Shown piece by piece: positions 1 to 54,552 of a DNA stretch of 58,123 nt. Under the pieces are notes generated by a model. That model was not told where the DNA came from. It did not search any database and was given only the letters and a program-made list of their open reading frames with translations. Numbering within the stretch: position 1 is the stretch's first letter; each line of letters starts with the position of its first letter. The stretch is from an uncultured bacterium (GTDB taxonomy: Bacteria; Patescibacteriota; Minisyncoccia; Phycocordibacterales; CAIJYI01), in NCBI GenBank assembly GCA_903824855.1, contig CAIJYI010000022.1:1-58123 (forward strand), given 5' to 3'. A program made the translations under genes and the position numbers.

Positions 1-64
1 GCACTCTGGTTGCTTTCCAATATTCCTTTTTGTATCGCTCAAATATCTCGTTTTTTGTTGCCAT
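1..64 (-). CDS. Partial ORF, N-terminal 21 codons only (runs off window edge); function unknown
   Basis: ATG at 64..62 on minus strand, open to position 1: MATKNEIFERYKKEYWKATRV; no SD; too short to assign. Confidence 0.3.
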   Translation of the reverse strand, partial: MATKNEIFERYKKEYWKATRV

Positions 65-80
65 ATTCATATGACAACTA

Positions 81-145
81 CGGTAACCTATTTATGGGAT
101 ATCCGCTGGATGTTCGGTAACATTATTTATGGGTGATAACGCGGG
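81..145. repeat. Two imperfect ~30-bp direct repeats upstream of tRNA-Tyr
   Basis: cggtaacctatttatgggatatccgctgg (81-109) vs cggtaacattatttatgggtgataacgcggg (115-145). Confidence 0.6.
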
Positions 146-165
146 CTTTCTTTTTTAATATTTTC

Positions 166-174
166 TGGTATACT
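166..174 (+). promoter_or_regulatory. Extended -10 element (TGgTATACT) for tRNA-Tyr
   Basis: TGg at 166-168 and TATACT at 169-174, 15 nt upstream of the tRNA 5' end; no good -35. Confidence 0.45.
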
Positions 175-189
175 GTCTGAGTGTTCAAT

Positions 190-273
190 GCGTCGGTGGT
201 AGAGTGGTCTAATACACGAGACTGTAAATCTCGCGGCTTTACGCCTTCGTTGGTTCGAATCCAACCCGGCGCA
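190..273 (+). tRNA. tRNA-Tyr (anticodon GTA), long variable arm, no encoded CCA
   Basis: Acceptor gcgtcgg/ccggcgc (one G-U), anticodon loop ctGTAaa, long variable arm, T-loop ggttcgaatcc; followed by CAA, not CCA. Confidence 0.9.
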
Positions 274-280
274 CAATAAA

Positions 281-310
281 AAATCGGCCCTTACGGCCGA
301 TTTTTTGTTG
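281..310 (+). terminator. Intrinsic terminator of tRNA-Tyr
   Basis: aaatcggcc-cttac-ggccgattt hairpin followed by a T-run (301-306). Confidence 0.8.
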
Positions 311-1155: not shown

Positions 1156-3183
1156 ATGCCAAAATCTCTCACCTTAGGGAACGGAAACATGCTCATTTGT
1201 TACGACAAATTTGGGCAAGTCAATGATCTCTATTTTCCTCAGGTTGGACTCGAAAATCATATCGGCAAAGATTCTCTCCACAGAATTGGCGTTTTTGTTG
1301 ATGGAAGAATGAGTTGGATTTCTGATTCGGGATGGCATATTGAATTTACAACACCGTCAAATACTCACATGGCGGTCATATCTGCTAAGAATCAAAATCT
1401 TGGTGTAACATTGACCTTTAATGATGTTGTCTACAACGAACAGAATATTTTCATTCGCCGCGTGACGGTAAAAAACGATTTACCGAGAGTTCTGAACGTA
1501 AAATTATATTTCTGTCAGGAATGGAATATCTATCAATCGGGAAGGCAAGACACGGGATATTATGATCCGGGAAGTAATTCGATTATTCATTATGAAGGAC
1601 GCCGTGTATTTCTGATAAATGGTCGCGTTGATAATCATGGAATAGATGATTACACCACCGGAATTTATCGAATGGAGGGAAAAGACGGAAGCTATATTGA
1701 TGCAGAGGACGGTATCCTTTCAAAGAATTCAATTGAGCACGGATTAACCGATTCCGTTGTAGGATTTCATCTTGAAATTAGTTCCGGGAGTGAAATAATT
1801 GTACATTATTGGGTCGGGGTTGGGAAAACTATTCCTGAAGTTTTTGATTTGAATAATTACGTTTTGGAAAAATCTCCCGAACACTTATTTCGGACGACAA
1901 AAGATTATTGGAGTGCGTGGGTTGATCGAGAAAATTTTAGTTATTACGGTCTCACAGACGATATGGTGAGCATGTTTAAGAAATCACTTTTTATAATGCG
2001 CTCGCACGTTGATTCAGGTGGAGCAGTAATTGCATCGGGCGATTCAGACATGCTTCAATATGGCCGCGATACCTATAGTTACATGTGGCCGAGGGACGGA
2101 GCTTTTGCCATTATGGCACTAGATCGTGCCGGCGATTCGTATGTTGCTCGAAAGTTTTTCACCTTTTGCAATCGTGTAATAACCGACGATGGTTTTTTCA
2201 TGCACAAATATCGTCCCGATGGCTCGCTCGGGAGTTCTTGGCATCCATGGGTAACAAAGTCCGGCGAATTTCAATTGCCGATTCAGGAAGATGAGACGGC
2301 TCTCGTTTTGTTTGCGCTTTGGGAACATTATAATCTCACAAAGGATCTTGAATTTATCGAAGAAATCTATAATTCTTTTATTCAGAAAGCTGCCAATTTC
2401 ATGGTCATCTATCGCGATAAAGAAACGAGATTGCCGAAACGAAGTTATGATCTTTGGGAAGAAAAACTAGGCGTTTCAACTTTCACCTGTGCTACCGTGT
2501 ATGGGGCGCTTCAATCAGCAGCATTCTTCTCGCAGCTTCTCGGAAAACATGATTCAGAGAAAAAATACCATGACGCAGCAAATGAAATAAAAGAAGGGAT
2601 AATGAAGTATCTATTTAATTCTGAAAGGGGTACTTTTCGGAAGCTTTTCAACCACGATAATGGAATTTTCACCTATGATGAAACGTTAGACATTTCTAGT
2701 GTTTATGGGGTTTTTCGTTTCGGAATTCTCCCCGCGAATGACGCTAAACTGAAGAAAGCATTTGGTATTGCCGAAGAGCGTCTTTTCTGTGCTAGATATT
2801 CGGGAGGAATTGCCAGATATGAAGGAGATAATTATTACAGAGCCGGTCACGATACTCCGGGAAATCCATGGTTTGTTTCCACACTCTGGCTAGTTCAATA
2901 TTATATTGCGCTTGCTGAAGATGAAAAAGATTTTGAGCGTGTAAAACCGTGGTTTGATTGGGTAAGTAAGATGGCATTGCCGACAGGGGTCCTTTCTGAA
3001 CAAATCAATCCTTACACAAGAGAGCAAATTTCTGCGGCACCGCTTACGTGGAGTCATTCAGAATATGTTTTAGCAGTAATTGCGTATATGGAAAAACTGG
3101 AACAGCTCGGCGTCATTACATCAAAAAGTCTAATTATGGAGAGAAATAAAGAGGTTGATAACGGGGAAACGCATATTGGCTAA
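1156..3183 (+). CDS. Glycoside hydrolase family 15 (glucoamylase / glucodextranase-like)
   Basis: 675 aa; GH15-type motifs (YMWPRDGAF, DLWEE, WSHSEY) and typical length. Confidence 0.85.
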   Translation: MPKSLTLGNGNMLICYDKFGQVNDLYFPQVGLENHIGKDSLHRIGVFVDGRMSWISDSGWHIEFTTPSNTHMAVISAKNQNLGVTLTFNDVVYNEQNIFIRRVTVKNDLPRVLNVKLYFCQEWNIYQSGRQDTGYYDPGSNSIIHYEGRRVFLINGRVDNHGIDDYTTGIYRMEGKDGSYIDAEDGILSKNSIEHGLTDSVVGFHLEISSGSEIIVHYWVGVGKTIPEVFDLNNYVLEKSPEHLFRTTKDYWSAWVDRENFSYYGLTDDMVSMFKKSLFIMRSHVDSGGAVIASGDSDMLQYGRDTYSYMWPRDGAFAIMALDRAGDSYVARKFFTFCNRVITDDGFFMHKYRPDGSLGSSWHPWVTKSGEFQLPIQEDETALVLFALWEHYNLTKDLEFIEEIYNSFIQKAANFMVIYRDKETRLPKRSYDLWEEKLGVSTFTCATVYGALQSAAFFSQLLGKHDSEKKYHDAANEIKEGIMKYLFNSERGTFRKLFNHDNGIFTYDETLDISSVYGVFRFGILPANDAKLKKAFGIAEERLFCARYSGGIARYEGDNYYRAGHDTPGNPWFVSTLWLVQYYIALAEDEKDFERVKPWFDWVSKMALPTGVLSEQINPYTREQISAAPLTWSHSEYVLAVIAYMEKLEQLGVITSKSLIMERNKEVDNGETHIG

Positions 3184-5506: not shown

Positions 5507-6862
5507 TTATTGTTCTAACTTATAAAAACCTCTATTGAGATCTTTATAAACGGTGACGGTTGGAACATCAATGGTTTTACCATAAGGATATTCGAATCCA
5601 CCGCGCCAGGTCATAGCTTCAGCGATTTCACGAACAGCATATACGATGCCGGCTTCGCGGAATGATTTTAGCTTGTATTGTTCACGTACTTTGTCCAAAT
5701 CGTGGAATGCTTCGCGCATGCGAGATTCCAACCATTCGGCAACACGTTTTGCTGGCCATTTTTGATTTTCTAAGCCTTGGACTTTTTCAGCAGAAGATAC
5801 ACGTACACCACCGCCTGATGCATAGAAGTCAGGAATGACTTCAACGCCACGTGCGGAAAGTATCTCGTCAGCTTCTTCCGTGCAGGGACCATTCGCTAAT
5901 TCAACGATAAATTTTGAAGTAATTTTGCGTGCCATTTCGGCATCAATTTTGTCTTCAAACGCTGCAGGAGCGAAGATGTCAGCCTTCAATGAAAGCAATT
6001 CGGCTTCTTCTGAGGTCAAATTATCTTTGTGAGGATAATCTGAAACCTTGCGAACTTTTGTGCCTTTTGTGTCATAGCAGAAAGCGTGCAAGTCAGCATA
6101 TTCAAAGCCGGCTTTTTTGTAAATGACACCACTACGATCGGAAACGGAAACAATTTTGTGTCCGCGTTCGCTCATTAATTTCGCATAGAAGTCGCCGGCA
6201 TTACCGAAGCCTTGAATTGCGATAGTTTGTGGTCCTCTCATTTGCAATTTTTTGATCATTTCTTCTGATGCATACACGGCACCAAGTGCGGTTGCATCGC
6301 CACGACCAAGTGATCCGCCAAGAACAAGAGGTTTACCTGTGAATTGCGCAGGAGCATGTTCACCTATCATTCTTTCGTATTCATCAAGGAACCAAGCCAT
6401 TTCTGCACCACCGGTATTAACGTCAGGAGCCGGACCATCAACACGAGGGCCGATGTATGGGGCGATGACACGAATATAACCGCGGCAGAGACGCTCACGT
6501 TCTTTCATTGAAAGTGCGAATTTGTCTACACAAATACCGCCTTTACCACCACCGTGACGAATGTCTACGATAGTATTTTTCATTGACATCATGGCTGCGA
6601 GGAATTTTACTTCACTTTCGCAGACGGCCAAGTCAAAACGGGTACCGCCTTGTGTTGGACCGCGGGCATGATTGTGTTGGCAACGGAAAACCTTAAATGA
6701 TTTGAATGAACCGTCATCCATTTCAATGGTTACTTCACCGCGAACTAAAAGTTCGGGAATTTGAAGCCGTTGATATATCACTGGATCAAGATTAAGAATT
6801 GAAGCTGACTTCTCGAGAAGCGCTAAATATTTGTCATAAGCTGTTCTTTTTGCAGCAGACAT
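5507..6862 (-). CDS. gdhA: Glutamate dehydrogenase (Glu/Leu/Phe/Val dehydrogenase family)
   Basis: 451 aa; GGGKGG catalytic motif and GFGNAG Rossmann motif; SD aaggaga upstream. Confidence 0.9.
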   Translation of the reverse strand: MSAAKRTAYDKYLALLEKSASILNLDPVIYQRLQIPELLVRGEVTIEMDDGSFKSFKVFRCQHNHARGPTQGGTRFDLAVCESEVKFLAAMMSMKNTIVDIRHGGGKGGICVDKFALSMKERERLCRGYIRVIAPYIGPRVDGPAPDVNTGGAEMAWFLDEYERMIGEHAPAQFTGKPLVLGGSLGRGDATALGAVYASEEMIKKLQMRGPQTIAIQGFGNAGDFYAKLMSERGHKIVSVSDRSGVIYKKAGFEYADLHAFCYDTKGTKVRKVSDYPHKDNLTSEEAELLSLKADIFAPAAFEDKIDAEMARKITSKFIVELANGPCTEEADEILSARGVEVIPDFYASGGGVRVSSAEKVQGLENQKWPAKRVAEWLESRMREAFHDLDKVREQYKLKSFREAGIVYAVREIAEAMTWRGGFEYPYGKTIDVPTVTVYKDLNRGFYKLEQ

Positions 6863-22051: not shown

Positions 22052-22099
22052 ATCTATGACGGCGACGCAAAAGGAATCGGTCACGGATAAATTTCGGGA

Positions 22100-22204
22100 C
22101 CTCCCAAAATTTTCCGCTACCCCGTCTTGCTTGCCCTTGCGAGGGCATGGCTCCGACCTTCGATTCCTCACGCAAGTGAAGCAGTTCACTTGCTTAGCTC
22201 CCGC
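22100..22204 (-). other. tRNA-linked hairpin element, copy A (candidate structured RNA)
   Basis: Minus strand: GCGGGAGCT (22204-22196), AA, GCAAGTGAA-CTGC-TTCACTTGC (22193-22172), GTGAGGA (22171-22165), then a GC-rich tail with a gccct-cgca-agggc hairpin. Confidence 0.5.
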
Positions 22205-22264: not shown

Positions 22265-22274
22265 AGTATTTCTG

Positions 22275-22345
22275 CGGGAGCTAGAGGAATCGAACCCCTG
22301 ATAGTGGTTTTGGAGACCACTGTTATACCATTTAACTAAGCTCCC
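22275..22345 (-). tRNA. tRNA-Trp (anticodon CCA), no encoded CCA end
   Basis: gggagct/agctccc acceptor, D-arm gtta/taac, anticodon loop ctCCAaa, T-loop ttcgatt; 71 nt. Confidence 0.9.
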
Positions 22346-48499: not shown

Positions 48500-48541
48500 A
48501 ATAGATAAGGGTATTGACAAATCTATCGATTGTAGTATACT
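48500..48541 (+). promoter_or_regulatory. Promoter TTGACA-16-TATACT bracketed by AATAGATA / ATCTAT
   Basis: AATAGATA at 48500-07, TTGACA at 48514-19, ATCTAT at 48521-26, TATACT at 48536-41. Confidence 0.65.
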
Positions 48542-48589
48542 GTTTTCGGGTGCCAATAACACATATATTAAACTCAAAAGGAGGATATT

Positions 48590-48694
48590 ATGTTATCTCA
48601 AATAGCTTTTGCATTCATTGCCGTCGGAAGCGTCTTTGTTTTCTGCCTCGTCCTAGTCTGGAAACATATCACGTTGAACATGAAGGACAAATAG
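48590..48694 (+). CDS. 34-aa hydrophobic micro-protein upstream of tsaD (not in ORF track)
   Basis: SD aaaggagga 4 nt before ATG 48590; MLSQIAFAFIAVGSVFVFCLVLVWKHITLNMKDK. Confidence 0.55.
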   Translation: MLSQIAFAFIAVGSVFVFCLVLVWKHITLNMKDK

Positions 48695-48742
48695 CATCTA
48701 TGACTCGTGCCCCAATCCGGAGTACGAGCCATTTTTTTACCC

Positions 48743-48770
48743 TTTACATATCCTTAAAACACCATATAAT
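48743..48770 (+). promoter_or_regulatory. tsaD promoter TTTACA-16-TATAAT, 7 nt before ATG
   Basis: -35 at 48743-48, -10 at 48765-70, ATG at 48778. Confidence 0.6.
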
Positions 48771-48777
48771 CGACATT

Positions 48778-49983
48778 ATGAACATACTTGCCATCGAAAC
48801 ATCCTGCGACGAAACAGCGATTAGTATCATCGAAATCCCCCACGCGAATAAAAATACCACGACAATACTTTCCAATGTGGTAGTTTCCCAGATAGAACTT
48901 CATAGGCCTTATGGGGGTGTATTTCCGATGCTGGCAAAAAGGGAGCATTCAAAAAATATTGTACCCGTTCTCGAAACAGCACTTCGCGATGCCGATCTTT
49001 TGAAACTAAAAAAGAAAACTTCCCCATTACCTGAAAATATTCTTGCAGGTTTAAAAAAGATTTTTGAAAGAGAGCCGGAACTTCACGATATTTTTATTGA
49101 ATTTTTTTCGAAGATTACAACGCCAAAAATTGACGTCATTGCTTTCACTCGAGGTCCGGGGCTCGCTCCCGCTCTTTGGGTCGGAGTCAATTTTGCTCGT
49201 GCCCTTTCTTTCGTTTGGGAAAAACCGTTACTGCCGGTAAATCATATGGAGGGGCACATGCTTTCCCCTTTGTTAAAAAGAACCACTGAAAAGAAAGCCT
49301 TCATCACAAAACCTGAATATCCCATTCTTGCGTTACTCATCAGTGGAGGTCATACAGAAATAGTGCTCTCGAAGAAACTTTTTTCCTATAAGGTTATAGG
49401 AACCACCAGAGATGATGCGGTAGGCGAAGCTTTTGATAAAGCTGCGCGAATTCTTGGACTTCCCTATCCCGGTGGACCGGAAATTTCACGGCAGGCTGAT
49501 AGATTTCGAAAAAAAGGAATCGCTGCCAGCGGAAAATATAAACTGCCTCGCCCGATGATACATTCGGATGACTTTGATTTCTCATTTTCAGGAATTAAAA
49601 CCGCCGTTCTGTATATGGTACAAAAAATACCGAATTTAACGGAAGATATTCGAGAAGAAGTTTGTTTTGAATTTGAGAACGCCGTCACAGAAACATTGCT
49701 TTCAAAAATGATGAAGGCAACGATAAAATATAATCCGCAGACGGTACTTCTCGGCGGAGGTGTTGCTTCTAACTCGCATATTCAAAAAGAGTTCCACGAT
49801 TCCTTTAAAAAGGAATTTCCTGAAGTAAGTGTTTCTGTTCCGGAAAAAGAACTTTCGACTGACAATGCACTTATGATAGCACTTGCCGGCTCTCTTCGTT
49901 TTTTGGGTGACAAAAAAAGCGTTCTTGCTTTTGATTCGAGAAAGATTAAAAACATCAAGGCCGACGGAAATTGGTCACTTTAA
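48778..49983 (+). CDS. tsaD: tRNA N6-adenosine threonylcarbamoyltransferase TsaD (Kae1/Gcp family)
   Basis: MNILAIETSCDETA N-terminus, HMEGH, GGGVASN motifs. The 88-codon N-terminal extension in the track covers a promoter, another ORF and a hairpin. Confidence 0.9.
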   Translation: MNILAIETSCDETAISIIEIPHANKNTTTILSNVVVSQIELHRPYGGVFPMLAKREHSKNIVPVLETALRDADLLKLKKKTSPLPENILAGLKKIFEREPELHDIFIEFFSKITTPKIDVIAFTRGPGLAPALWVGVNFARALSFVWEKPLLPVNHMEGHMLSPLLKRTTEKKAFITKPEYPILALLISGGHTEIVLSKKLFSYKVIGTTRDDAVGEAFDKAARILGLPYPGGPEISRQADRFRKKGIAASGKYKLPRPMIHSDDFDFSFSGIKTAVLYMVQKIPNLTEDIREEVCFEFENAVTETLLSKMMKATIKYNPQTVLLGGGVASNSHIQKEFHDSFKKEFPEVSVSVPEKELSTDNALMIALAGSLRFLGDKKSVLAFDSRKIKNIKADGNWSL

Positions 49984-51801: not shown

Positions 51802-51874
51802 CCGCCCATAGCTCAGTTGGTAGAGCAGATCCCTCTTAAGGATAAGGTCGTAGGTTCGAACCCTACTGGGCGGA
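51802..51874 (+). tRNA. tRNA-Lys (anticodon CTT), no encoded CCA end
   Basis: ccgccca/tgggcgg acceptor, D-arm gctc/gagc, anticodon loop ctCTTaa, T-arm gtagg-ttcgaac-cctac; 73 nt. Confidence 0.9.
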
Positions 51875-51877
51875 CAA

Positions 51878-51906
51878 GAAAAAATGCCTTTGCGGAGGCA
51901 TTTTTT
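51878..51906. terminator. Terminator of tRNA-Lys (usable in both directions)
   Basis: aaaatgcct-ttgcgg-aggcatttt. Confidence 0.8.
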
Positions 51907-51912
51907 GTTGTT

Positions 51913-51965
51913 CGCCCACGCAAATGAACTGCTTCATTTGCGTGTGGGATGTGATGGGAACCGCG
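51913..51965 (+). other. tRNA-linked hairpin element, copy B-plus (after tRNA-Lys)
   Basis: CGCCCA (51913-18, matches tRNA-Lys 5' strand), CACGCAAATGAA-CTGC-TTCATTTGCGTG (51917-51944), then GTGTGGGAT. Confidence 0.5.
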
Positions 51966-51974
51966 CGGCTCGTT

Positions 51975-52037
51975 GCGACATGCTCAACATCTTCTCGTCC
52001 TCACGAAAGAGACGCAGGTCTCTTTCTTCCTGGGCGC
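51975..52037 (-). other. tRNA-linked hairpin element, copy B-minus (after tRNA-Leu)
   Basis: Minus strand: GCGCCCAGG (52037-29), AA, GAAAGAGAC-CTGC-GTCTCTTTC (52026-52005), GTGAGGA (52004-51998), ...CATGTCGC (51982-75). Confidence 0.5.
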
Positions 52038-52064
52038 AAAAAAACCGGCTCTACGCCGATTTTA
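52038..52064 (-). terminator. Intrinsic terminator of tRNA-Leu
   Basis: Minus strand atcggc-gtaga-gccggt (one G-U) followed by ttttttt. Confidence 0.65.
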
Positions 52065-52067
52065 TTG

Positions 52068-52149
52068 TGCCCAGGAGAGGACTCGAACCTCCAAGGATTG
52101 CTCCACTAGTTCCTAAGACTAGCGCGTATACCAATTCCGCCACCTGGGC
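52068..52149 (-). tRNA. tRNA-Leu (anticodon TAG), long variable arm, no encoded CCA end
   Basis: gcccagg/cctgggc acceptor, anticodon loop ctTAGga, long variable arm, T-loop ttcgagt; 82 nt. Confidence 0.9.
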
Positions 52150-52275: not shown

Positions 52276-54552
52276 ATGACAGAAAAAACCGAAAAAGCTG
52301 TAGAATTTAATGTTGGTAAAGTATATGAATATATACCTTATTGGCGCATGATAAACTCATGTGGTGGAAGTCAAAAAGGAAGTTATCTTAATTTGAGAGG
52401 ACACGATAATCTGCCTCCACTCGACGGAATAGATGAACAAAAAATTGCCGAGCTTTGTAGAATTGTTCGGGGTCTTATTTTTACCATGGTAGACGTTTCA
52501 AAATCGGGACATCCCGGCGGATCGTCTTCTAAGGTAGAACAATTAGTTACTCTTTTGTGTTCAGAATCATTTCGCTTTGATGCGGAACATCCAAAAAATC
52601 CCGGACGTGACCGTTTAGTATGGTCAGCCGGTCATTGTTCCCCATTGGCACATTCATTGAACGCTTTGATTAAAGAAATCCTGCGATTGGAAGGAATTAA
52701 TCTTTCTGATGAAGAATTGAAATATTATTTTTCTCTTGAAGATTTGCTAAAATTCCGTACCTTCGGCGGTCCATCAGGGCACGTTGAATCCCATTATGCA
52801 CTTGAAGACGCATCAACCGGTTCATCCGGTCATGGTCTTTCTGCAGGCTTGGGATATGCAACACTCCATAAAACGAGTGGCCTACCAACAAAAGTTTTTG
52901 TTGTTATGGGTGACGCTGAAACAGAAGAAGGAATGGTTCATGAAGCACGCAACGTTGCGATTGCTTCCGGAATTTCAAACCTTGTTGTTCTATTGGATAA
53001 TAATGGATTTGGTATTGATGGTCACATAGGTGAAGCGATACCGAGTGAATTAGTCGATGATTGGAGAAAATGGAACGTCATAGAAGTCGACGGTCACAAC
53101 ATTCGTGAATTGGCATATGCTTATAAAATCGCGGCATTAAAAACCGATAAACCAACCGTTATTATTTCCCACACAACGAAGGGAAAATTCTACGGAAAAT
53201 TGGAAAATACATCTGATTCACATGGTACCCCACTTTCACACGATGAATATGTTGAAGCGATGAAAGGTTTAGTACGTGAAAGCGATTTTGATTTCAGAAA
53301 TATGTCTGAGATTAAGACGGCCATATTCTTTAGTGAGGAAAGAAAATATTTCTTGAGACAATTAAAAGTTGCAAAAGAGAAAATTCTTCCCGAAAGCGAA
53401 CTTGTCGCAGAGATGAAAAAAGCTCTCAAAGACAGACCGCTTGTCGACCACACCTCGATTAAACGTCCTGTTGAATTACCTCCGGAACTCCTCTTTAAAG
53501 AAGGCGTTCCCAAAGCAACACGATTTGCAACCGAAGCATTCTTTGAATGGTTGATGAAAAAAACCGGATTCTTCTATATAGGAACCGGCGATCTTTCAAA
53601 ATCAATCCTCACAAGAAAAGCAGAAGATGTTTACGGAATTATTAATCGTGAAAATCCTCTTGGACGCGGTATTCGTTTTGGTATTGCCGAACAAAATATG
53701 GCGATGATGTCGGTGGCGATGTCGCAAGATGTTCTCCCCGGCGGACTTAAACCGTTTAATGTTTTCGGTTCCTATGGCGTGTTTACCTCAATGATGGCAA
53801 ACTCTGTTCGTATGGGACTTGTCAATAATGCAATGAATCCTGAAGCAAAAAGTTGTTTCTGTATGCTCGCTGCTCATGACGGACCTGAAACAGGTGAAGA
53901 CGGACCGACTCATCACGGACTTTTCTGGATGTCGCTCTTTATGGCATATCCCGGAATCAAGGTGTACAAACCGCTTGATGCGAACGAAGCCGTGGAAATG
54001 TTATTCCTCGCAATAGAACGCAACGAACCGTTTGTCATGTCTGTCGCTCGTCCGAATACTCCTGTGTTTGAACGAAATGAAATAACAAAAGTTCCACCTG
54101 CGCGCGAAGCATGCAATGGCGCTTATGTATTCAAGAATTATTCATTAAACGAAAAAGTCAAACTTCCGATTGTTGTAGCGGGCGGACAAATGGTCGCTAA
54201 CCTTTTGAAAGCGTTGCCACAGATTGAGGAACAATATGATGTTAAAATCATTGCCGTTACCTCACCGGAATTGTTTAATGAACTTCGCGAAAGTGACCCA
54301 AAGAAAGCACTAATGATATTCAGCGAATATGACAGACACAATGCCATTACGCTCCATAACGGTTGGACCGGATTTCTCGACTCGTTTATTTTGCCGACGA
54401 ATTATAAGATGCGTGCACTCGGCATAACAAAGTTTCTCCAGTCAGGCAGACCTGAAGAAGTTTATCTTCAAGCTGAATTTGATTCGAACGGAATCGCGGA
54501 GAAAATAATTAAATCAGCAAAAGTCGACAAATGGTCGCCGATTGCTTCATAG
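52276..54552 (+). CDS. tkt: Transketolase-family TPP enzyme (long form)
   Basis: 758 aa; SGHPGGSSS, GDAETEEG (TPP binding), pyrimidine-binding and C-terminal domains. Confidence 0.8.
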   Translation: MTEKTEKAVEFNVGKVYEYIPYWRMINSCGGSQKGSYLNLRGHDNLPPLDGIDEQKIAELCRIVRGLIFTMVDVSKSGHPGGSSSKVEQLVTLLCSESFRFDAEHPKNPGRDRLVWSAGHCSPLAHSLNALIKEILRLEGINLSDEELKYYFSLEDLLKFRTFGGPSGHVESHYALEDASTGSSGHGLSAGLGYATLHKTSGLPTKVFVVMGDAETEEGMVHEARNVAIASGISNLVVLLDNNGFGIDGHIGEAIPSELVDDWRKWNVIEVDGHNIRELAYAYKIAALKTDKPTVIISHTTKGKFYGKLENTSDSHGTPLSHDEYVEAMKGLVRESDFDFRNMSEIKTAIFFSEERKYFLRQLKVAKEKILPESELVAEMKKALKDRPLVDHTSIKRPVELPPELLFKEGVPKATRFATEAFFEWLMKKTGFFYIGTGDLSKSILTRKAEDVYGIINRENPLGRGIRFGIAEQNMAMMSVAMSQDVLPGGLKPFNVFGSYGVFTSMMANSVRMGLVNNAMNPEAKSCFCMLAAHDGPETGEDGPTHHGLFWMSLFMAYPGIKVYKPLDANEAVEMLFLAIERNEPFVMSVARPNTPVFERNEITKVPPAREACNGAYVFKNYSLNEKVKLPIVVAGGQMVANLLKALPQIEEQYDVKIIAVTSPELFNELRESDPKKALMIFSEYDRHNAITLHNGWTGFLDSFILPTNYKMRALGITKFLQSGRPEEVYLQAEFDSNGIAEKIIKSAKVDKWSPIAS

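Follow-up and report, generated by a model that had tools for sequence, protein, structure and literature searches.

Tail-mirror elements, a family of predicted structured RNAs behind tRNA and tmRNA genes of Patescibacteria, with two probably decayed convergent copies between tRNA-Lys and tRNA-Leu

The interval between the convergent genes for tRNA-Lys(CUU) and tRNA-Leu(UAG) in the 58-kb stretch of DNA analysed here (hereafter the window) holds two convergent copies of an element that recurs behind tRNA and tmRNA genes of Patescibacteria (CPR), and whose 5' arm mirrors the tail of the gene that it follows. We term these tail-mirror elements, the name being our own coinage. We favour, at about even confidence, the reading that the two copies are decayed, and that the family consists of tRNA-operon spacer or trailer RNAs which would be released by tRNA end-processing in the manner of the RtT RNA of Escherichia coli. 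The family is new to Rfam 15 and to the literature that we searched: Rfam models run at gathering thresholds and at permissive E-values on the window and nine of the loci described below retrieved only tRNA, tmRNA and, in E. coli, RtT, and the literature search turned up no report of a tRNA-linked RNA of this kind from the CPR.

The window is a segment of a bacterial chromosome with about 39% GC, whose genes include those for UvrA, a transketolase-like protein, TsaD, Fmt and HPF, along with four tRNA genes detected by both ARAGORN and Rfam (Table 1). CCA is encoded in none of these four, and all four trailers begin with CA. In the tRNA-Lys gene the acceptor 3' strand occupies 51867-51873 and the discriminator A 51874, with a trailer that begins CAAG. 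The trailers of tRNA-Tyr and tRNA-Lys have TTTTTTGTTGTTCG in common; behind tRNA-Tyr (190-310, plus strand) there is only an A-tract, a hairpin and a T-tract. Elsewhere in the window, the TsaD homologue (48514-49983, plus strand) is 489 residues long and matches the Pfam TsaD model only from about residue 200 onward, being preceded by a long N-terminal extension.

The interval is GC-rich, as the original prediction had it, at 0.57-0.58 versus 0.32-0.44 for 1-kb windows. Upon re-reading the sequence we recovered all the motifs from which that prediction had been built, namely CGCCCA at 51913-18 and the 12-bp hairpin CACGCAAATGAA-CTGC-TTCATTTGCGTG at 51917-44 behind tRNA-Lys; GCGCCCAGG (52037-29), AA, GAAAGAGAC-CTGC-GTCTCTTTC (52026-05) and GTGAGGA (52004-51998) on the minus strand behind tRNA-Leu; and a CCGCGCGG palindrome, which lies at 51961-68. 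Its central proposal, that these are two convergent copies of one tRNA-linked element, was borne out by a covariance model (R1) built from 14 copies in relatives. This model has exactly three matches in the window, each just 3' of a same-strand tRNA (Trp, Leu and Lys) and none behind tRNA-Tyr, with E-values of 2e-10 for the Leu copy and 6e-8 for the Lys copy. The pattern CTGC-N7-14-GTGWGGR occurs four times in the window against 0.2 expected, three of the four being behind tRNAs. The fourth occurrence, at 53606-53623 inside the transketolase-like ORF, has no R1 match and was set aside as a chance match.

Table 1. Positions of tRNA genes, tail-mirror copies and terminator palindromes in the window
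Feature	Position	Strand	Basis
tRNA-Tyr	190-274	+	ARAGORN, Rfam
Trp-linked copy, best preserved of the three	22064-22202	-	R1, 105.8 bits; fold z = -4.6
tRNA-Trp	22274-22345	-	ARAGORN, Rfam
tRNA-Lys(CUU)	51802-51875	+	ARAGORN; Rfam RF00005, 68.5 bits; sequence
Long imperfect palindrome around the tRNA-Lys terminator-like hairpin	51867-51918	+	Sequence
Lys-linked copy	51908-51971	+	R1 match 51911-51971, 29.2 bits; fold
Leu-linked copy, truncated	51946-52041	-	R1 match 52035-51946, 36.8 bits; alignment with L071, L033, L049; tail match
Palindrome around the tRNA-Leu terminator-like hairpin	52028-52076	-	Sequence
tRNA-Leu(UAG)	52067-52149	-	ARAGORN, Rfam

The three copies share a module made up of a 7-mer, a linker of 1-2 nt, a 9-bp hairpin with a CUGC loop and GUG(A/U)GG. 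In the Trp copy, the 5' arm GGGAGCU leads through AA into the hairpin, after which come GUGAGGAAUCGAA and a body of two modules that GGAAUCG/CGAUUCC closes; 11 + 11 nt are complementary to the tail of tRNA-Trp, and the copy lacks any version of the acceptor 3' strand. It is also the only one with a promoter-like site, a sigma-70-like CTGACA-16-AACAAT at 22235-22208 whose predicted start is the first G of the 5' arm; none was found when such a site was looked for at the Leu and Lys copies. The Leu copy begins with the leader and 5' arm UUUUGC-GCCCAGG (52041-52029, the 7-mer being a perfect match), continues through AA (52028-27) into the hairpin GAAAGAGAC-CUGC-GUCUCUUUC (52026-52005) and then has GUGAGGAC (52004-51997), the complement of the T-stem 3' strand. 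About 30 nt of its body are left, a remnant GAGAAGAUGUUGAGCAUGUCGCAACGAGCCG that reaches about 51966 and belongs to the class GAAGAUGUUGAGCAUGUCGCAACGAGCC common to L071, L033 and L049; alignment with these relatives shows the copy to lack the next ~60 nt of body as well as the 3' arm. In the Lys copy, the leader and arm UUGUU-CGCCCA (51908-51918) precede the family hairpin GCAAAUGAA-CUGC-UUCAUUUGC (51920-51941), which can extend to 12 bp over 51917-51944, and a degenerate GUGUGGGAU (51942-51950). The U of its arm UCGCCCA forms U.G with the tRNA. Only the 5' module is recognisable here, with neither body nor 3' arm, and in the R1 alignment 9 nt stand in for 94 model positions.

Two further parts of the original prediction did not hold. 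The 3' tails of the copies had been thought to overlap antisense; the recognisable parts in fact abut with no overlap, for the Lys module extends to about 51950-58 and the Leu remnant stops at about 51966. Likewise, RNAs of roughly 150 nt, each ending at the terminator of the other tRNA, are not what the family predicts, as its full-length members are self-contained units of 110-190 nt and both copies in the interval are truncated. The Lys and Leu copies are best read as decayed remnants that most likely no longer make the RNA of the family and that at most extend two terminator palindromes. In the palindrome at tRNA-Lys, the left arm (51867-51889) consists of the tRNA tail, trailer and A-tract, the loop spans 51890-51895, and the right arm (51896-51918) consists of the T-tract, the leader and the 5' arm UCGCCCA, with Watson-Crick pairing at 21 of 23 positions, one G.T and one mismatch. 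In the one at tRNA-Leu, one arm is formed by the tRNA tail and trailer (CAAUAAAA) and the other by the leader and 5' arm with which the Leu copy begins; three of the 22 positions of these arms are non-Watson-Crick.

These palindromes bear on a more ordinary account of the interval, in which two bidirectional intrinsic terminators and some chance hairpins, or else small peptides, would suffice to explain the sequence between convergent tRNA genes. An A-tract, hairpin and T-tract do follow both tRNAs, and short Arg-rich ORFs of 18 codons in the Leu copy and 33 codons in the Trp copy can be read. However, the CUGC hairpins run into GTGAGGA or GTGTGGG, with no T-run, and do not classify as intrinsic terminators, in contrast to the separate hairpins next to tRNA-Lys and tRNA-Leu, which do have T-runs; neither of the latter was called by a consensus terminator scan, which we attribute to their stems continuing through the A/T tracts. 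The E-values given above, the existence of dozens of homologues and the covariation described below also contradict this account, and we regard it as very improbable. Peptide coding was rejected in its own right on the evidence of the Leu-type ORF, which is not conserved, being interrupted by an in-frame UAA in the L033 homologue.

The homologues were gathered with a hairpin pattern in which 19 bases were fixed; run against a single genome for each species, it yielded 64 loci against roughly four expected by chance, the latter being our estimate. About 55 of these loci lie in Patescibacteria/CPR, spread over Paceibacteria, Nomurabacteria, Saccharibacteria, Moranii-, Uhr- and Lloydbacteria, and nine are chance matches within coding DNA of other phyla. 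The hairpin is conserved across relatives, in support of the original prediction. Within the ascertained loci R1 gives 81 matches above about 20 bits, amounting to about 80 copies: 50 of the 81 have a same-strand tRNA or tmRNA at most 120 nt upstream, five come after tmRNAs found by Rfam only, seven follow another copy, and nine are at contig ends. The tRNAs so linked have at least 17 identities (Leu, Val, Ser, Gly, Trp, Tyr, Ile, Lys, Cys, Met, His, Asp, Arg, Glu, Phe, Pro and Asn). Copies linked to tmRNA occur at seven loci of CPR genomes (L002, L013, L034, L044, L059, L060 and L062), where five of the tmRNAs are missed by ARAGORN and detected by Rfam RF00023. Copies are also found in tandem and between the genes of tRNA operons, and the arrangement Glu/Val(gac)/element recurs in metagenome-assembled genomes labelled Saccharibacteria, Nomurabacteria and Parcubacteria. 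At the same time, the element is absent behind many tRNAs and in some relatives. One copy, at 29-138 (minus strand) of L010, is separated from tRNA-Asp by about 1.4 kb and by another Asp-linked copy, yet has a 17-nt perfect copy of the tRNA-Asp tail.

The anatomy of the family is that of a tRNA tail seen in a mirror. The 5' arm of a full copy is the Watson-Crick reverse complement of the last 22-25 nt of the preceding gene together with its trailer. Ahead of the hairpin, the arm mirrors the acceptor 3' strand, the discriminator and the first bases of the trailer; past the hairpin, it complements the T-stem 3' strand and T-loop, variable positions 59 and 60 among them. As segments on both sides mirror the tail, the 9-bp CUGC-loop hairpin, which splits the arm at the acceptor/T-stem (65/66) junction, can be described as an insertion at that junction of the mirror image. 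The original prediction had taken the acceptor-like segment for a copy of the tRNA 5' strand. This view fails at G.U pairs, where 12 of the 13 copies that are informative agree with the 3'-strand complement; among the informative positions is the G3.U70 of tmRNA, which the mirrored arm turns into A-U. Similarly, an encoded CCA appears as UGG in the arm, and a second copy in tandem complements the trailer of the first. That each copy is matched to its own tRNA, with the match co-varying across genomes, was confirmed by permutation: cognate pairs agree at 6.44 of 8 and 9.83 of 11 positions versus 4.35 and 7.93 for non-cognate pairs, and 0 of 5000 permutations reached the observed value. Orthologous tRNA-Val(gac) genes show the two sides changing together, the T-loop and arm being UUCGAAU and AUUCGAA in L018 versus UUCGACU and AGUCGAA in L026.

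The tail itself, from the T-stem 3' strand to the discriminator and CA, is repeated directly at the end of many copies, after which comes a new A-tract, hairpin and T-tract. This direct copy is present in many full-length relatives; of the three window copies, the Trp one lacks its acceptor part, and the Leu and Lys ones lack the whole 3' arm. Where the direct copy is present, the predicted fold brings the ends together in an acceptor/T-stem-like helix from which the hairpin branches off. The 5' arm is nevertheless perfectly complementary to the tRNA tail in units that have no 3' acceptor strand of their own (the Trp copy of the window, L005, L017, L020, L029 and L071), and it complements the tRNA T-loop in copies whose own 3' arm does not. 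At L050, the T-stem segment of the arm follows the unit's own 3' arm and not the tRNA. Some copies can fold locally at the 3' end into something resembling a T arm; this was considered and rejected, since the stem has only 4 bp and the 8-nt loop is not a T-loop.

Several loci depart from this plan. The first copy of L047 (~5800-5960, minus strand) has no CUGC hairpin: its GCCGAAG runs straight into GUGGGACUUGAA, giving an uninterrupted mirror of the tRNA-Leu(caa) tail, and the unit ends in a tail copy, which makes it the closest to E. coli RtT in architecture. In L071 (~60-296, minus strand) and L054 (~1620-1700, plus strand) the hairpin loop is enlarged by about 35 nt with CCGUAGCCUUGGCGAAGGAGGG, a word found again at the end of the L071 unit. 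In L029 (516-672, plus strand), a second tRNA-Glu copy adjoins an intact tRNA-Glu (696-770); its T-loop (TTCGA) is replaced by a family unit of about 100 nt, consisting of hairpin and body, which is closed by the T-stem of the tRNA itself, and its acceptor 3' strand is degenerate. This nesting of an element within a tRNA gene hints at how the family may arise.

The stretch from the T-loop to the 3' end of a tRNA or tmRNA gene is the classical target of integrases, and the units might be DNA-level entities with no RNA function: selfish or recombinational repeats of the MITE or CIME kind, leftover integrase att sites, or terminator palindromes extended by template switching. The direct tail repeats, tandem arrays, truncated copies and presence or absence among relatives would all fit, as would the position of a terminator at the centre of the long palindromes. 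Other observations speak against such an origin, which we consider quite improbable. The hairpin-pattern scan gave no match in 2.9 million viral contigs, and no recombinase was noticed beside the copies, the neighbouring ORFs of the loci being unannotated. Compared with att repeats, direct tail repeats do occur in relatives, in units of 110-190 bp that show RNA covariation. Nor do the copies behave as dispersed repeats of the REP/BIME or MITE type: R1 had no match in 487 kb of related metagenomic DNA with only two tRNA genes, all three copies in the window lie behind tRNAs, and the arms differ from one tRNA to the next. Inverted tail copies are absent from 40 of 45 tRNAs without the hairpin, so a general extension of palindromes was rejected, and the 11 + 11 nt complementarity of the Trp copy spans a 35-nt spacer that is not palindromic. 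Finally, the Glu/Val(gac)/element arrangement persists across different CPR lineages, and the body has strong covariation with near-invariant G.U pairs.

This body, a rod-like, G.U-rich and covarying structure of several modular classes, follows the 5' module. In an alignment of 75 sequences, itself fitted to the model, compensatory changes are seen at 41 of 41 model pairs, and pairing is seen in 95% of cells, versus 40-52% in controls with slid partners. At one pair 54 of 63 sequences have G.U, which is also frequent at several other pairs. Such pairs would be C.A mismatches on the opposite strand, which indicates that the element is an RNA encoded on the strand of the tRNA. Full-length copies have fold z-scores of -5.7 to -9.1. 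The elements possess no D, anticodon or T arm, and are recognised as tRNA or tmRNA by none of ARAGORN, RF00005 and RF00023. Some copies begin 1-24 nt after the tRNA with no terminator between, and others lie between genes of an operon, as in L036, whose order is Leu-E-Val-E-Phe-Met-Gly (E being the element); co-transcription with the tRNA is therefore very likely at such copies. At other copies, a terminator-like hairpin stands between tRNA and element.

On the favoured reading, the tRNA promoter would drive transcription of the units, which would be operon spacers or else be reached by read-through of the terminator-like hairpin. The 5' arm would pair with the unit's own tail copy and thereby re-create the acceptor/T-stem helix of the cognate tRNA, so that the enzymes that process tRNA ends could free the unit as a stable RNA by-product. 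Units that have no tail copy may use the arm differently, folding it back onto the upstream tRNA at its tail and trailer. That the units are transcribed, where their RNAs end and how they are processed are here predictions from sequence. Two points strain this scheme. An arm matched to the tail where there is no internal partner points to pairing with the upstream tail, which a pure tRNA-like closing helix would leave unexplained. In predicted precursors, moreover, the leader pairs with the discriminator and trailer, and such pairing is unfavourable for cleavage of RNase P substrates. The hairpin and body, for their part, could bind a factor.

The nearest known relative by architecture, homology not being proven, is the E. 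coli RtT RNA (RF00391; rttR) of the tyrT/tyrV operon. Like the CPR elements, RtT lies 3' of a same-strand tRNA, within an operon and in tandem. Its unit ends with the tail of tRNA-Tyr itself, AAUCCUUCCCCCACCACCA, as many CPR units end in a tail copy, and its 5' arm GGGGAAGGAU pairs with that tail and closes a rod-like RNA. The arm is followed by AUGAGAA, a variant of the T-loop complement that appears in CPR copies as ACGAGAA, UCGAGAA or AUGAGAA. In the RefSeq annotation RtT is a processing product of the tyrT transcript, and what it does is still unsettled (PMC3318445; bioRxiv 10.1101/2024.07.17.603846). Unlike the CPR family, RtT has no CUGC hairpin, its 5' arm covers the acceptor strand incompletely, and at the locus examined it accompanies only two tRNA-Tyr genes, whereas the arms of the CPR family are re-matched to each of the many tRNAs and to tmRNA. 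RF00391, with a 45-bit criterion, had no match at E cut-offs of 1 to 10 in the window regions or in L003, L015, L020, L026, L033, L042 and L052, E. coli RtT itself scoring 121-134 bits as a positive control, and R1 had no match to E. coli RtT. As each model misses the other family, what is common is an architecture and not proven homology, and the parallel may be one of convergence. At E. coli tyrT/tyrV (L066, 1335-1941), RtT has UCGAGCGAAAGCGAGAG, and several CPR bodies (e.g. L020 and L042) have UUCGAGCGAAGCGAGG in the apical loop, a similarity that by a rough estimate is not significant alone.

Other known RNAs offer partial parallels. Plant mitochondrial t-elements and mascRNA at the MALAT1 3' end are tRNA-like signals, and by analogy the terminal acceptor/T-stem-like helix of a unit could recruit RNase P and RNase Z. 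These signals are generic in sequence, whereas the tail-mirror helix reproduces the neighbouring tRNA and the arm mirrors its T-loop and trailer as well. The 3'ETS-leuZ sponge RNA of E. coli is, like the proposed units, a by-product of tRNA-operon processing with a life of its own. The spacers of E. coli tRNA operons make short pairings with sRNAs; in contrast to the elements described here, they hold no tail mirrors and no conserved fold common to operons.

The main alternative to the processing scheme would make the 5' module the functional part, as a guide or antisense device: the two arms would pair with the 3' tail of the cognate precursor in a three-way junction at nt 65/66, the CUGC hairpin would recruit a protein for quality control, 3'-end processing or modification, and a unit's own tail copy would only mask the guide. 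The arm does track the tail, down to the T-loop, discriminator, trailer and CCA, even where it has no internal partner; the coordinated change at tRNA-Val(gac) agrees with this, and it is exactly the 5' module that the truncated window copies retain. The topology is that of a bipartite guide of the H/ACA type. The H/ACA RNAs of archaea and eukaryotes have a hairpin with an antisense arm on either side, the two arms making a three-way junction with the target as the tail-mirror arms would. For a guide whose gene adjoins or lies inside that of its own tRNA, there is a precedent in the box C/D guide of the archaeal pre-tRNA-Trp intron. However, the likeness to H/ACA RNAs extends to the bipartite-arm topology only, with no H/ACA box geometry or k-turn established; nucleotide 65, which would be the H/ACA-type target, is not consistently U among the linked tRNAs, and the target region is hidden in the folded tRNA. 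The complementarity tracks the genomic trailer (CA) rather than mature CCA, so a guide would act only on precursors or in cis. The hairpin-less copy of L047, the T-stem part of L050 and the many tRNAs and relatives with no element also fit such a role poorly. No candidate partner protein was identified; to our knowledge, bacteria have no Cbf5- or Nop-type partner, and we know of no bacterial guide-RNA system that acts on tRNAs. We hold this alternative to be unlikely. A specific form of it, in which each unit is the guide RNA for its own tRNA or tmRNA, with the arm binding the precursor tail and the hairpin recruiting a protein specific to Patescibacteria to process, check or modify it, we judge decidedly unlikely.

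The remnants in the window belong to a family in flux. At the neighbouring transketolase-like gene, a relative with 72% identity in that gene has tRNA-Leu(tag) and its terminator with no element; among 80 metagenomic loci compared by synteny through this gene, tRNA-Leu(tag) is kept in only one (L068), which has no element. In L054, the same convergent Lys/Leu tRNA pair is found with a full-length Leu unit. The absence in the one and the intact unit in the other mean that the element is gained, lost and eroded, and it is apparently dispensable where tRNA-Leu(tag) has its terminator only.

Patescibacteria make up a large and mostly uncultured part of bacterial diversity and have minimal genomes, so that conserved non-coding DNA in them is unlikely to be idle. 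The tail-mirror elements, whose function we infer from sequence, constitute in them a widespread and structurally well-supported family with arms re-matched to each neighbouring tRNA or tmRNA. For annotation, the family accounts for GC-rich filler behind CPR tRNA genes and reveals the five tmRNAs that ARAGORN misses. If the guide interpretation were true, it would give bacteria their first known RNA-guided system directed at tRNAs, and hairpin-only remnants such as those in the window could still be active. The family supplies dozens of natural variants for testing RNAs that bear tRNA tails, including a possible guide-like recognition of tRNA 3' ends, and it would turn the RtT repeat of E. coli from a curiosity of one operon into a representative of a possible general class.
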